Shown: positions 12,313 to 19,305, numbered from the stretch's first letter. The stretch is 20,000 nucleotides of DNA from an uncultured virus (IMG/VR IMGVR_UViG_3300027996_000021) (IMGVR_UViG_3300027996_000021); one strand, 5' to 3'. Program-made: numbers and translations. Notes: generated by a model from the sequence alone, not told the origin.

Positions 12313-12690
12313 ATGAGTATCAAATTAGCAATTCTCAAATCTGGAGAGCAAGTTATTTCTGATATTAAAGAAATGCTATCTCCTGAACAAAAAGTTATTG
12401 GTTATCTTCTAAAAAATACGTATACAGTCTGGGAAGATGATACTGAAGAGGTTGAAATTCTACTGGAAGAATCAGAACCAGAAGATATCGATAAGAACAA
12501 TGTTGATATTGTAATGACGAAATGGATTCGCCTCTCCAAGAGTGATGAAATCATGATTCCAGTAGATTGGGTTGTTACTATTGTAGACCCACTAGATAGT
12601 TTGATTGAAATGTACACTTCCACTTTTAAAGAAAATGATTCAATGCCTACTTCTGAAATCCCAGGATCTAATACTGATCTCCAAGGTTGA
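12313..12690 (+). CDS. Hypothetical phage protein (possibly Sm-like fold)
   Basis: MSIKLAILKSGEQVIS...W...IPVDWVVTIVDP. Confidence 0.75.
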   Translation: MSIKLAILKSGEQVISDIKEMLSPEQKVIGYLLKNTYTVWEDDTEEVEILLEESEPEDIDKNNVDIVMTKWIRLSKSDEIMIPVDWVVTIVDPLDSLIEMYTSTFKENDSMPTSEIPGSNTDLQG

Positions 12691-12943
12691 ACAAGTTGAA
12701 ACTGACCCCCTATCTGGAGAACCAAATTGCAAACTAATTGATCCAGCTAGAATCTTTTTTAAAATGGTAAAAACTGATCACAAATACGATGATCGTGAAC
12801 CATACACATATGTTTTAGAAAGTTGGCCTGAATATGGCATTACTGATCAAAAAGAAGTAATGATCCATTCTGATGCTATACTTACTATTGTTGAACCAGG
12901 TGAAAAACTGGTAAAAGCCTACGAAGACTTTATTAAAGAATGA
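12635..12943 (+). CDS. Hypothetical phage protein, likely paralog of the upstream ORF
   Basis: MIQCLLLKSQDLILIS...WP...IHSDAILTIVEP. The ATG at 12635 is preferred; ATGA overlap with gp43. Confidence 0.7.
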   Translation: MIQCLLLKSQDLILISKVEQVETDPLSGEPNCKLIDPARIFFKMVKTDHKYDDREPYTYVLESWPEYGITDQKEVMIHSDAILTIVEPGEKLVKAYEDFIKE

Positions 12944-14217
12944 GATTCTACACTAATGTTCAAATGGTCGGGGATCAATTTCTCGTCCGAGGTTATGAAA
13001 ACGGTCAAAGTTTCATGACTCGGGAGAAGTTCAACCCGACTCTTTTTGTATCTTCCAATAAGAAAACCAAGTACAAAACTCTTGAAGGAAATTACGTTGA
13101 ACCAATTCAACCTGGGTCAGTACGTGACTGCCGAGACTTTATCAAAAGGTATGATGGTGTAGAAGATTTTAATATCTATGGTAATGAACGTTTCATCTAT
13201 CAGTATATTTCTGAAAAGTACCCTGATGATGAGATCCGTTTTGATATCTCAAAGATTAATCTATACACCCTTGATATTGAGGTTGCATCCGAGAATGGAT
13301 TCCCCGACGTGGAGTCGGCTGCAGAAGAGATTCTCCTCATCTCCATTCAGCATTACACCACGAAGGAAATCATCACCTGGGGTGTGAAATCTTTCAACAA
13401 CTCTCAGGATAATGTGGAGTATCGTCTATGTGATTCTGAGTACCATTTACTATCCAACTTCATCAGTTGGTGGATGGAAAATACTCCAGACATTATCACT
13501 GGTTGGAACTGTGAACTGTACGATATTCCGTACATTACAAAGCGTCTTAACCGCGTTTTGGGTGAGAAACTAATGAAGCGTCTGTCGCCATGGGGACTAG
13601 TGACAGAACGTGAGATCTTTGTTGCTGGCCGTAAACAATTGAGTATCGATGTTGGTGGTGTAACTCAGTTAGATTATCTGAATCTATACAAGAAGTTTAC
13701 ATATACCAGTCAGGAATCTTATCGTCTGGATCATATTGCCTTTGTGGAATTGGGGCAGAAAAAACTAGATCACTCTGAGTTTGATACATTCAAAGATTTC
13801 TATACAAATGACTGGCAAAAGTTTGTAGAGTATAACATCATTGACGTGGAACTTGTTGACCGTTTGGAAGATAAGATGAAACTGATTGAACTTGCATTGA
13901 CCATGGCTTATGATGCCAAGGTGAATTACAATGATGTGTTCTATCAGGTTCGTATGTGGGATAGTATCATCTACAACTATCTCAAGAAGCAGAATATTGT
14001 AATTCCACCTAAAAAAGGTAGCAATAAAGATGACAAATATGCTGGAGCATATGTCAAAGAGCCTATTCCTGGAAGGTATGATTGGGTTGTTTCCTTTGAC
14101 TTGAATTCTCTTTATCCACACCTTATAATGCAATACAACATCTCACCAGAGACACTAATTGATATGGGCAACTTAAATTCTAGAATTGAGGAATTGGAAG
14201 ATGCATTATCCAATTAA
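12940..14217 (+). CDS. gp43: Family B DNA polymerase gp43, N-terminal subunit (N-terminal domain, 3'-5' exonuclease, motif A)
   Basis: ExoI LDIE, ExoII GWNCELYDIPY, ExoIII YNIIDV, YAGAYV and motif A SFDLNSLYPHLIMQYNISPET, then a stop codon. Confidence 0.95.
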   Translation: MRFYTNVQMVGDQFLVRGYENGQSFMTREKFNPTLFVSSNKKTKYKTLEGNYVEPIQPGSVRDCRDFIKRYDGVEDFNIYGNERFIYQYISEKYPDDEIRFDISKINLYTLDIEVASENGFPDVESAAEEILLISIQHYTTKEIITWGVKSFNNSQDNVEYRLCDSEYHLLSNFISWWMENTPDIITGWNCELYDIPYITKRLNRVLGEKLMKRLSPWGLVTEREIFVAGRKQLSIDVGGVTQLDYLNLYKKFTYTSQESYRLDHIAFVELGQKKLDHSEFDTFKDFYTNDWQKFVEYNIIDVELVDRLEDKMKLIELALTMAYDAKVNYNDVFYQVRMWDSIIYNYLKKQNIVIPPKKGSNKDDKYAGAYVKEPIPGRYDWVVSFDLNSLYPHLIMQYNISPETLIDMGNLNSRIEELEDALSN

Positions 14218-14764
14218 GATTAGTGACGTTATTCCATATTGGTTATTTAAATCTCTTCAGGATGAGTACTATTTCACTGGTTGGAAAATGTATAATGTTT
14301 CCAGTGATAATTCTGGAGAAAGATATTCATGGAGCATAAACACTCATCAACCAAATCAATTAATTTTTTATCAGATTGCAACTTATATAAAGTATAGAAT
14401 AAAAAAATATATTAAGAAAGATCTACATTTCATTAGGGCACATACAAATCTATATGTTTATGGGCAAACTGGAAAATTCCATAAAGATTTTGTGGTAGAT
14501 AAAATCTGGACTTTTATTTTATTCACTACACCAAACTGGAATATTCAATGGGGTGGCGAATTTGTATGCTATGATGGGAAGGAATACAGTTATGTGCCAC
14601 ATATTCCAAATGCAGGTGTTTTGATACCATCTAACTGGGAACATTATGGATCTTGTCCAAATGAACTGGCTAACTGTTCAAGAACTTCAATTGGTTTTAC
14701 TTTTGCCGAAACTGATGTACTAAAACAGGTACTAGATCTTAAAGTTGCAAGGAGTTTTGTATGA
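14201..14764 (+). CDS. 2OG-Fe(II) oxygenase inserted between the two polymerase genes
   Basis: HxD (FHKD), WNIQWGGEF, distal His (WEHYG) and RTSIGF. GAGGA RBS at 14188-14192 before the ATG at 14201. Confidence 0.85.
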   Translation: MHYPIKISDVIPYWLFKSLQDEYYFTGWKMYNVSSDNSGERYSWSINTHQPNQLIFYQIATYIKYRIKKYIKKDLHFIRAHTNLYVYGQTGKFHKDFVVDKIWTFILFTTPNWNIQWGGEFVCYDGKEYSYVPHIPNAGVLIPSNWEHYGSCPNELANCSRTSIGFTFAETDVLKQVLDLKVARSFV

Positions 14765-16113
14765 CTATGTGGAAAGATGTTAGGGGGATGTCAAAAGAAG
14801 AAATTGCATCTGAACTAGAAAATCTAAAAAAAGTCAGAGAGATCTCTACAAAAGTAAATGTTGATAAAGTTTTAAGTGAAGAAATGGATCTTAAACCTTT
14901 ATCAAAGGTTAATATAACACTTGCCGCTAATGGTGCATTATATAATTGTGTTCGGGGATTTCTTCCCAAATTGATGGATAAGATGTATGGTGAGCGTGTC
15001 ATCTTCAAAAAACGGATGCTCAAAGCCAAGCAGGAGTTTGAGAAGACTCCTACTGATGCACTTAAAAAGGAGATTGCCAGATGTAATAACATTCAAATGG
15101 CGAAGAAGATTTCTCTTAACTCTGCTTATGGTGCTATTGGCAATCAATACTTCAGGTATTATAAACTAGACAATGCAGAGGCTATTACGCTATCTGGCCA
15201 AGTCTCAATCCGATGGATTGAGAACAAGATGAATGGTTATCTAAACGACCTTTTAAAAACCGAGGAGGTGGATTATGTCATCGCTAGCGATACAGATTCA
15301 ATCTATCTTAATCTTGGACCTCTTGTTGATAAGTTTTTTAGTTCTAAGTCTGGCAATAAAGTAGAGATTGTTTCTATACTTGATAAGGTCTGCCAAGACA
15401 AATTGGAACCATTCATCGATAAGTCTTATCAGGAATTGGCATCATATGTATCGGCTTATGACCAGAAGATGGTCATGAAGCGAGAGAACATTGCTGATCG
15501 TGGAATCTGGACTGCGAAGAAGCGATATATTCTTAACGTATGGAACAGTGAGGGTGTTGCATATGCAGAACCAAAACTGAAGATCATGGGCATTGAAGCA
15601 GTCAAATCATCCACACCAGCACCTTGCCGTCAGATGATTAAGGATGCTCTCAAACTTGTAATGACTGGAACTGAAGATGATGTTATTGACTTCATTGAGC
15701 AATCGAGAAAAAGTTTCTTGCAGATGAAACCAGAGGAAATCTCTTTTCCTCGATCTGTTAGTAATGTTGAAAAGTTTTATGATCGGTCTAGTATCTATAG
15801 AAAGGCCACTCCAATCCATGTTCGTGGAGCTCTTCTGTTTAATCACTACATAAAAGATAAGAAACTTACAAACAAGTATTCTTTAATTCAAAACGGTGAG
15901 AAGATCAAGTTCTGTTATTTGAAGGTTCCAAATACTATTCATGAGAATGTACTTTCCTTTATTCAAGATTTTCCAAAAGAACTTGATTTGAATAAGTATG
16001 TGGACTATGAACTTCAATTCAACAAATCATTTGTTGATCCACTAAAAGCAATCCTAGATGCTATTGGTTGGTCTGTAGAAAAAACTGTAAGTCTGGAGGA
16101 CTTTTTCGGATGA
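14761..16113 (+). CDS. gp43: Family B DNA polymerase gp43, C-terminal subunit (fingers, motifs B and C, thumb, clamp-binding tail)
   Basis: ANGA..., motif B KISLNSAYG, motif C ASDTDSIY, KKRY, GIEAVKSSTP and C-terminal LEDFF. Own RBS AAGGAG at 14749-14754. Confidence 0.95.
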   Translation: MTMWKDVRGMSKEEIASELENLKKVREISTKVNVDKVLSEEMDLKPLSKVNITLAANGALYNCVRGFLPKLMDKMYGERVIFKKRMLKAKQEFEKTPTDALKKEIARCNNIQMAKKISLNSAYGAIGNQYFRYYKLDNAEAITLSGQVSIRWIENKMNGYLNDLLKTEEVDYVIASDTDSIYLNLGPLVDKFFSSKSGNKVEIVSILDKVCQDKLEPFIDKSYQELASYVSAYDQKMVMKRENIADRGIWTAKKRYILNVWNSEGVAYAEPKLKIMGIEAVKSSTPAPCRQMIKDALKLVMTGTEDDVIDFIEQSRKSFLQMKPEEISFPRSVSNVEKFYDRSSIYRKATPIHVRGALLFNHYIKDKKLTNKYSLIQNGEKIKFCYLKVPNTIHENVLSFIQDFPKELDLNKYVDYELQFNKSFVDPLKAILDAIGWSVEKTVSLEDFFG

Positions 16114-17315: not shown

Positions 17316-18682
17316 TGGAACAAATTGAAATCACAATTCTGAGAAGTTTGGTCAACAATGAAGACTACGCTAGAAAGGTTATACCATTTTTACAACCAGA
17401 ATACTTTGAAGATCGCATTCAGAAAACAATCTTTCTTGAGACTTCAGAGTTTATTATCAAGTATGATAGTCTTATCTCTCTTGAAGCTCTACAGATTGAG
17501 ATCTCAAATCGTTCCGATCTCACTGGAGAAGATCTTCAGGAAGCAAAAAACTGTATTGATAAACTAGAAGAAAAAGAAGTTGATCAGAAATGGTTGACGG
17601 ATTCTACTGAGAAGTGGTGTCGTGATCGTGCCATTTATTTGGCGCTTATGGAATCAATTCATATTGCGGATGGTAATGATGAAAAGAAAAATCGCGATGC
17701 CATCCCTAGTATTCTGAGTAATGCTTTAGCAGTTTCTTTTGACAACCACATTGGCCATGATTATCTACAGGACTTTGCAGAAAGGTATGAGTCTTATCAC
17801 CGTAAAGAAGATCGGATTCCGTTTGATATTGAGTACCTTAACAAGATTACTAAAGGTGGTTTACCAAATAAGACTCTTAATATCGCTCTTGCTGGCACAG
17901 GTGTCGGAAAGTCTCTTTTTATGTGTCATATGGCTGCGTCATCTCTCCTCGCGGGATATAATGTACTGTATATCACTATGGAGATGGCAGAAGAAAAAAT
18001 TGCTGAGAGAATTGATGCGAACCTTTTGAATGTAAATATTCAAGAGATTGTTGATCTTCCACGTCCTATGTTTGAAAGCAAAGTATCAAACCTTGCTAAG
18101 AAGACTCAAGGCAATTTAATTGTCAAAGAATATCCTACTGCAAGCGCACATAGTGGACATTTTAAAGCACTTCTTAATGAACTTGCACTTAAGAAGTCAT
18201 TTAGACCTGATATTATTTTCATTGATTACCTTAATATATGTGCTTCCTCCCGTTATCGCGGAAACGGCAATGTCAATTCATATTCATATATTAAGTCTAT
18301 TGCAGAAGAGCTTAGAGGATTGGCTGTTGAAGCAAACGTCCCTATCGTTTCTGCCACGCAGACCACTCGTTCTGGTTATGCTAGCTCTGATGTTGACATT
18401 ACTGACACTTCTGAGTCCTTTGGTCTCCCTGCTACTGCTGATCTTATGTTTGCCCTTATTAGCACTGAGGAACTTGAACAACTTGGACAGATAATGGTAA
18501 AGCAACTGAAGAATAGGTACAATGATGGAAATGTAAATAAACGATTCATCGTTGGCATTGATCGTGCCAAGATGCGACTTTATGATTGTGAACAGAGTGA
18601 GCAGAATATCGTTGACACTGGACGAGATGAAGAGTATAATAATGAAGAATCCGTAAATAAATTTAGTGGTCTTCAATTTTAA
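17315..18682 (+). CDS. gp41: Replicative helicase gp41 (DnaB-like SF4)
   Basis: Walker A AGTGVGKS, ITMEMAEE, IFIDYL, SATQTTR, SESFGLPATAD and KQLKNRY. ATG at 17315 overlaps the uvsX stop codon. Confidence 0.97.
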   Translation: MEQIEITILRSLVNNEDYARKVIPFLQPEYFEDRIQKTIFLETSEFIIKYDSLISLEALQIEISNRSDLTGEDLQEAKNCIDKLEEKEVDQKWLTDSTEKWCRDRAIYLALMESIHIADGNDEKKNRDAIPSILSNALAVSFDNHIGHDYLQDFAERYESYHRKEDRIPFDIEYLNKITKGGLPNKTLNIALAGTGVGKSLFMCHMAASSLLAGYNVLYITMEMAEEKIAERIDANLLNVNIQEIVDLPRPMFESKVSNLAKKTQGNLIVKEYPTASAHSGHFKALLNELALKKSFRPDIIFIDYLNICASSRYRGNGNVNSYSYIKSIAEELRGLAVEANVPIVSATQTTRSGYASSDVDITDTSESFGLPATADLMFALISTEELEQLGQIMVKQLKNRYNDGNVNKRFIVGIDRAKMRLYDCEQSEQNIVDTGRDEEYNNEESVNKFSGLQF

Positions 18683-19305
18683 TGTTTGAATTAAATGCTA
18701 AAATTCAAATAAGAGTAGAATCTTTTCGAGATTCCACAATTTATTATATGGATGATTTTTATCAGGATCCCAATCAAATTGTTTCCTTCATCAACAATAC
18801 AGAATGTTCTTATCACAAGCAAGGTGAGCTAAATTCTTATAATGGTATTCACTTTGATGATAAACGCCATAATATTGAAAGTGGTATGATTGATCATGTT
18901 TATGATTTTTTATCAAAAATTTGCAATCAATCTCCAAATAGCAAAGCATTCAATACAAATGTAGGCAAATTTTTCGATAATTCATTTAATGATTATAAAA
19001 ATAATTATTGGTGGCCACACTTAGATCTGGGATATACTGCAATCGTATATTTGAATCATGAGCAAAATTGTGGGACAAATTTATATGATGGATTGGGCAC
19101 AGATAACAGAAAAGGTATATCAGAGCATAGTGCTCCGTGGAGGCCTAAAAAAAGTTATGAGGTGATCAAGTCCATTGAACCACGATATAATAGATGTGTT
19201 TTATTTAATGCAAAAAAATTTTTTCATGGTATGAATATTTGCAATGATTATTTTTTCAACGATGAATATAGACTAAATCATGTAATGTTTTTTAAAGAAA
19301 AATGA
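18682..19305 (+). CDS. 2OG-Fe(II) oxygenase-like protein (DUF6445-like)
   Basis: DDFYQDP, PHLD (HxD), AIVYLN, GTNLY, YNRCVLF...FFHG and RLNHVMF. Confidence 0.7.
   Translation: MFELNAKIQIRVESFRDSTIYYMDDFYQDPNQIVSFINNTECSYHKQGELNSYNGIHFDDKRHNIESGMIDHVYDFLSKICNQSPNSKAFNTNVGKFFDNSFNDYKNNYWWPHLDLGYTAIVYLNHEQNCGTNLYDGLGTDNRKGISEHSAPWRPKKSYEVIKSIEPRYNRCVLFNAKKFFHGMNICNDYFFNDEYRLNHVMFFKEK

Follow-up and report, generated by a model that had tools for sequence, protein, structure and literature searches.

Three described systems are closest to the one considered here. The first is the nrdA-a/mobE/nrdA-b locus of phage Aeh1, in which an essential phage gene is present as two open reading frames (ORFs) around a free-standing HNH endonuclease gene, and in which the two products keep unspliced C- and N-terminal tails (Crona et al., PMC3045599). 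As described in that report, activity depends on the tails, whereas the halves join without them, and it is the tetramer and not the heterodimer whose formation they drive; overall they are oppositely charged, and they are reported to lack database homologues (PMC3045599). A late-promoter motif lies upstream of the endonuclease gene mobE (PMC2677866). The second is the polymerase gp43 of Aeromonas phages 44RR and 25, which is split into 43A and 43B (Petrov, Ratnayaka and Karam 2010, via PMC2988022 and PMC2677866), i.e., a T4-type polymerase of two subunits, without intein, and with or without an intervening endonuclease (PMC2988022, PMC2677866). The third comprises the fractured genes of Dassa et al., whose halves lie around an endonuclease gene, with a hairpin, a late promoter and stages of endonuclease loss, and which have split inteins (PMC2677866).

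The locus described here resembles all three. The stretch of DNA analysed (20,000 nucleotides; the window) is the replication module of a T4-like marine cyanophage, and among cultured phages the nearest gp43 comes from Synechococcus phage S-T4 (88.8% over B residues 32-450). Gene 43 is made as two proteins, because a swappable DNA cassette lies inside the gene. The features concerned are as follows, in window coordinates:

12940..14217, + strand: gp43A, 425 residues, with the N-terminal and exonuclease domains and palm motif A (PF03104, PF00136)
14155..14217, + strand: tail of A, L406-N425 plus the stop codon; predicted helix at about 409-422 (homologous to helix 409-422 in the AlphaFold2 model of the fused allele L171), heptad core L412/I416/L419/L423, invariant R415
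14201..14764, + strand: passenger ORF, 2OG-Fe(II) oxygenase-like, 187 residues from the ATG at 14201 (up to 192 with the alternative TTG at 14186), overlapping gp43A at its end and gp43B at its start
14761..16113, + strand: gp43B, 450 residues, with the fingers, palm motifs B and C and the thumb (from Pfam and homology)
14761..14805, + strand: split-specific extension of B, with a conserved Met at 14767 and W4, V7, M10, E14 and I15; predicted to form a short capping helix and one further helical turn, and lacking in the fused forms
14806..14853, + strand: helix of B common to fused forms (helix 426-441 in the L171 model), core L19/L22/V25/I28, invariant E18
14854..14955, + strand: about 35 codons of a palm-loop subdomain, replaced along with the cassette; identity to S-T4 is 26-52% here and 96-100% immediately downstream

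The C-terminal end of gp43A is NISPETLIDMGNLNSRIEELEDALSN, followed by a stop codon, and gp43B starts with MTMWKDVRGMSKEEIASELENLKKVREISTKVNVDKVL. Across A and B the fold is that of a T4-type PolB gp43, with catalytic motifs A, B and C all intact, and on RB69 gp43 the break falls within residues ~432-456, in the variable palm loop that follows motif A. The IMG/VR contig L112 is 100% identical to the window over 4412 nt, although it may come from the same sample, and both junctions (A stop to oxygenase, oxygenase to B start) are bridged with 0-5 differences by contigs of 4/4 runs from four studies, none of these runs being flagged as a possible source. Thus, the split is not an assembly artefact; the ORFs, the two protein ends and the junction contigs bear out the split polymerase and the two tails that an initial annotation of this DNA had read from the sequence. 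Immediately 5′ of gp43A are two overlapping DUF6561 paralogues (12313-12943), and AT-rich stretches between core genes of the window hold a second 2OG-Fe(II) oxygenase (PF13640, 5810-6394) and a DUF6445 ORF (18682-19305).

Among the best 80 loci for B residues 1-180, 12 are split at the same point and have homologous tails (a number enriched by the choice of query and thus no frequency), 3 are contiguous with both helices on a short loop, and 65 have a short linker. Further scans yielded 181 loci with both junctions, corresponding to 58 distinct junction alleles, together with 18 distinct fused alleles, in which a loop of 6-12 residues joins the A helix to the latter half of the B helix. One fused form, that of S-CAM7 (NC_031927), is from a cultured phage: its contiguous gp43 has both helices at the same site as the split described here, but is a single chain of 867 residues with a 7-residue loop and without the B extension, and is annotated only as DNA polymerase. 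In a minority of unsplit gp43s, about two-thirds of the tail sequence is present as a single uninterrupted helix-turn-helix insert, and only the first ~14 residues of B and the last few of A are specific to split forms. The initial annotation had described contiguous gp43 as having only a short linker here, which holds for the 65 loci but not for this minority, and had regarded the tails as wholly new additions, which is upheld for the B extension and the end of A only; equal presence of the tails in contiguous gp43, which it had named as evidence against its own proposal, is found in part, in the 18 fused alleles and cultured S-CAM7. Absence of the tails from contiguous homologues, which would go with the Aeh1 type, is seen here in part: the gp43 tails are absent from the 65 loci and from S-T4, are present for two-thirds of their length in fused forms, and are split-only in the B extension.

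No cultured phage with a palm-site split was found in the GenBank phage set, and no description of a palm-site gp43 split or of the hairpin was found in the literature searched (subscription journals and supplements lay outside its scope). In 44RR the cut is at the tip of the fingers, ~65 residues later than the palm-loop split, and in cyanophage ACG-2014f it is also at the fingers tip. Splits at the fingers tip with short helical ends of their own occur in L267-L273, L361 and ACG-2014f (L468:883-3899), and in L267-L273 a fused palm hairpin and a fingers split are present in the same gp43. L265 has a frameshift within an otherwise fused hairpin, either an assembly error or a nascent split, and was omitted from the trees. 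Matches of the DNA pattern in L092, L107, L116 and L119 lie in other reading frames and were rejected as chance.

The palm loop itself is variable in content. Many intact gp43s have a shorter helix or other helical inserts there, and in the contiguous gp43s L318, L379, P0034 and P0035 the helical inserts are different and partly unrelated, which suggests that the loop is an insertion hot spot. A distant gp43 (L391, 1679-4906; also L392) is split at the same palm site around the same HNH family but has unrelated tails, and two further sequences (P0048 and P0065, with putative starts) resemble B subunits without an N-terminal tail. Thus, the tail pair described here is not the sole solution.

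Purifying selection acts on both tails. In 52/52 alleles, R415, I416 and L419 of A and M3, M10, E14, I15, E18 and L22 of B are invariant, and omega over 50 alleles is 0.22 for the A tail, 0.31 for the B extension and 0.19 for the B helix, compared with 0.06-0.07 for the catalytic flanks (the values are pairwise and hence not independent; L297 and L445 were excluded). The alleles with unrelated tails, L391 and L392, were excluded from the conservation and omega analyses, as they were from comparisons of cassette DNA identity. Conservation among split homologues, which the initial annotation had proposed as a check, is thereby established. The amphipathic character of the helices is less distinct. 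Hydrophobic residues do occupy a and d positions (A 412/416/419/423; B 15/19/22/25/28 with a slip), so the heptad-like spacing noted at the outset is present as a pattern; in the window sequence alone, however, the hydrophobic moment is not above that of shuffled sequences (A, p 0.08; B, p 0.29 and 0.19), and averaging the columns over 36 split homologues brings it to the borderline (p 0.02-0.17, with the best angle at 102-112 degrees). Conservation of the tails is the stronger evidence, over amphipathicity.

A profile of the start of B matched 60 cluster representatives, most of them fragments, of which 29 have the N-terminal tail motif, and in 29/29 of these a glutamate equivalent to E18 is present. 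A word-indexed search with B 1-62 returned 4 proteins only, and an atlas search returned only clusters that are unnamed or labelled as PolB fragments. Weak matches of B tails to Ribosomal_L29, LEM and SAP (E 0.007-0.05, all below the cut-off) were taken as a shared helix-cap motif, and descent from these families was set aside.

What the tails may look like together is suggested by the fused forms. The AlphaFold2 model of L171 (59-row alignment, pLDDT 88.8) is otherwise RB69-like (TM 0.87-0.89 against RB69 gp43) and has helices at 409-422 and 426-441 joined by a 3-residue turn, with a pLDDT of 88-94 in the hairpin region. Leucine-zipper-type coiled coils are parallel and extend over three to four or more heptads. 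Helices of 14-16 residues joined by a 3-residue turn do not correspond to this, and point instead to a short antiparallel hairpin of about two heptads, the packing of which is likely from the secondary structure and the heptad register. Thus, of the inter-subunit coiled coil that had been proposed to replace the covalent link, the helical nature and a probable pairing without splicing survive, whereas a long zipper probably does not.

Antiparallel coiled coils form ion pairs at g positions, and in the register of the hairpin R415 of A and E18 of B are both at g positions. All 53 split alleles have R/E in this pair of columns, as do 2 fused alleles; the reverse, E/R, is found in 6 fused alleles, a further 10 alleles have a neutral residue in one column or both, and none is like-charged. 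Among 35 testable column pairs there were 2 clash-free reversals, and this was the stronger of them; since the E/R alleles fall into two related groups, the swap may represent one event or two. We infer an ion pair between R415 and E18. The tails of Aeh1 NrdA have opposite net charges, whereas those of the window are both slightly acidic (-3 for A 410-425 and -1 for B 11-29), with the one conserved R/E pair instead. Prediction of a complex between A 394-425 and B 1-40 gave a score of 0.22, with a mark of 0.32, and was used neither way.

Taking these observations together, we consider it probable that a laterally moving cassette splits gp43 at the surface loop after motif A, and that each half is left with one arm of a helical hairpin, the arms likely pairing antiparallel across the chains to close the break without splicing. 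Such a pairing would follow from the helices of the fused homologue in the AlphaFold2 model, the invariant heptad residues and the one charge swap. The extra 14 residues of B would add a hydrophobic layer against the last leucine of A, together with a cap, and so take the place of the covalent turn.

Alternatively, the halves could assemble through the large native interfaces of gp43, with the tails providing local stability or some other contact, e.g. with a replisome partner or in a higher-order assembly. This is unlikely, without being far-fetched. Aeh1 NrdA from which the tails were deleted still gave the a/b heterodimer (PMC3045599), 43A and 43B from an Aeromonas phage with the fingers split are active and purify together (PMC2988022), and splits at the same palm site exist with other tails; moreover, the fused hairpin is under constraint of its own, which suggests a role beyond joining. 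A B extension that is confined to split forms and kept across 29 sequence clusters, a charge swap between the two tails, and the adjacency of both helices in natural fused proteins are, however, better accommodated by pairing of the arms.

Rejoining of the two ORFs, whether by splicing of the RNA, by ribosomal bypassing or by trans-splicing of the proteins, is very improbable; the tails would then be spacers or intein remnants. Elements of these kinds are known in T4-like replication genes (PMC2677866; bioRxiv 2022.08.31.505936), but there were zero Rfam matches at E<=0.5 in 7 loci, no intein family of Pfam matched A, B or the tails, Hint motifs are absent where A ends and B begins, and gap length ranges between 20 and 1092 nt although the stop of A and the Met of B stay fixed. 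The fractured genes of Dassa et al. differ in this respect, as the palm-split gp43 would function without intein and without ligation. A decaying pseudogene or an assembly error, for which the lack of a cultured representative in the GenBank phage set could be cited, is scarcely credible for two halves that are open and conserved in dozens of lineages with motifs A, B and C intact, with junctions bridged by runs of four studies and tails under purifying selection.

The gene between the halves is exchangeable. The passenger ORF of the window has a weak match to 2OG-Fe(II) oxygenases (Pfam E 4e-5, below the cut-off) and 53% identity to the passenger of L291, and it occupies the slot in which relatives have an HNH or a GIY-YIG-like endonuclease. 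Across the 58 alleles the passenger is an HNH endonuclease in 40, a GIY-YIG-like endonuclease in 9 and an oxygenase in 2; 3 more have recognisable endonuclease remnants and 4 have short gaps. An endonuclease flanked by the halves, as in Aeh1, is therefore present in 49/58, the slot in the window having an oxygenase-like gene instead. The tails are retained in the 7/58 alleles in which the endonuclease has decayed or gone, as in the 2 with an oxygenase. The late promoter motif TATAAATA is present in the gap of 43/49 endonuclease alleles and absent from the window's own A-B gap. A hairpin in the gap gave z values of -2.85, -1.79 and -1.19 in three loci; L297 has none. In the HNH family, 62 of 80 loci have the N-terminal motif, and all 62 lie directly after a truncated gp43A; in the window's own record, which is 34% complete, no endonuclease of this family was found.

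Several loci vary on this arrangement. The gaps of L108, L122, L129 and L134 (1089-1092 nt) and of L006, L105, L143 and L179 (773-867 nt) hold extra DNA or small ORFs beside the HNH gene, which is more cargo in the same slot. In L432 and L433 (2830-3558), a longer HNH variant (242 residues, with a repeated N-terminal unit) follows gp43A; in L432 an ORF other than gp43B comes next, and the two halves may thus be drifting apart. HNH C-terminal domains of a related type, with a different N-terminal part, occur between gp55-like and gp47-like genes (L451-L465). Near gp43B (L002:3659-5678; L011, 3′ of gp43B), the neighbouring uvsX/recA-like gene is fragmented, with intein-like ends and an intervening ORF, and resembles the fractured-gene loci.

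Comparison of the window with the intact gp43 of S-T4 in bins of 40 residues gave 92-100% identity upstream of the split and 82-100% downstream; the drop is confined to the ~35 residues after the tail, which places the cassette at about 14155-14955. The cassette consists of the tails, the stop codon, the passenger gene and the ~35 replaced codons, and it moves laterally. The flanks of the window are 95.0% identical to intact S-T4 and 83.5% to the nearest split gene; those of the split L297 are 99.4% identical to intact L312 and about 50% to any other split gene. In all, 10/38 split genes are nearer to an intact gene than to another split gene (the 38 rows include L391, despite its differing tails). 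On trees built from the flanks only (145 rows), the number of changes required in the split label is 20 for one flank and 16 for the other, of which at least 12 and at least 10 are forced by starred branches; L334, labelled 'other split' on these trees, has flanks identical to those of intact L331. A single clade of split genes was rejected on the flanks in a 32-row subset, which was chosen after the 145-row tree had been seen. The flank trees place fused alleles at three or more positions.

This spread is probably driven by endonuclease homing, with co-conversion of the ~35 codons. The window may then represent a late stage of the process, after loss of the endonuclease and its replacement in the slot by an oxygenase gene. 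Its sub-family (the window/L112, L291 and L278-L281) is without endonuclease, with an oxygenase or an empty slot, yet occurs in two backbones, so that ordinary recombination or an endonuclease acting in trans would also have moved it. The initial annotation did not recognise the unit as a mobile homing-endonuclease cassette, and it overlooked the published case of reassembly with the help of tails in Aeh1 NrdA (PMC3045599).

Whether the hairpin or the split came first bears on all fused alleles. Either a hairpin that already existed was cut at its tip, or tails and split have a common origin and all fused hairpins are scars left by later re-fusion; the latter is a serious possibility, although not the one towards which we lean. 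Re-fusion is favoured for L171, the DNA of which is 92% identical to some split alleles over 189 nt (the median for split alleles is 77%) and which nests with L014 among split alleles in the cassette tree (unstarred), i.e., without strong support. The fused label requires more than one change in 200/200 bootstrap trees (5-95% range 4-5), and split-type tails reach far more distant gp43s than the fused type does. Against re-fusion as a general origin, the 64-column cassette is compatible with the split alleles together forming one clade (p-AU 0.23), and fused alleles of the S-CAM7 type have only 53-62% DNA identity to any split allele. The helices in the palm loop of many intact gp43s also count against it, and suggest that at least the B helix has an unsplit antecedent.

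By analogy, the palm-site cassette can be seen as a variant of the repair principle already published for Aeh1 NrdA/mobE. It differs in the enzyme concerned, in that its tails form a widespread family homologous to a natural fused hairpin, and in that it moves between backbones and swaps passengers. A more far-reaching reading would make the tails a self-sufficient portable clasp and a self-repairing homing element of a third class, next to introns and inteins, spread through the T4-like polymerases of many lineages and cycling between split and re-fused states, with the middle of the gene as a cargo slot for metabolic genes and with the R/E and E/R variants as orthogonal tags of ~20+30 residues; this we regard as doubtful.

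The principle of tail-assisted reassembly is in print. Reassembly of split enzymes after invasion by an endonuclease has been described as an open structure-function question (PMC2988022), and assembly tails were expected to be too variable for detection by similarity (PMC3045599); those of gp43 are a conserved family. Intact, fused-hairpin, split, decayed and cargo-bearing alleles exist naturally in near-identical backbones, together with a cultured fused form, so that fission, re-fusion and the function of the tails would be directly testable with point mutants. Here, the interior of an essential gene serves as a slot for a metabolic gene.
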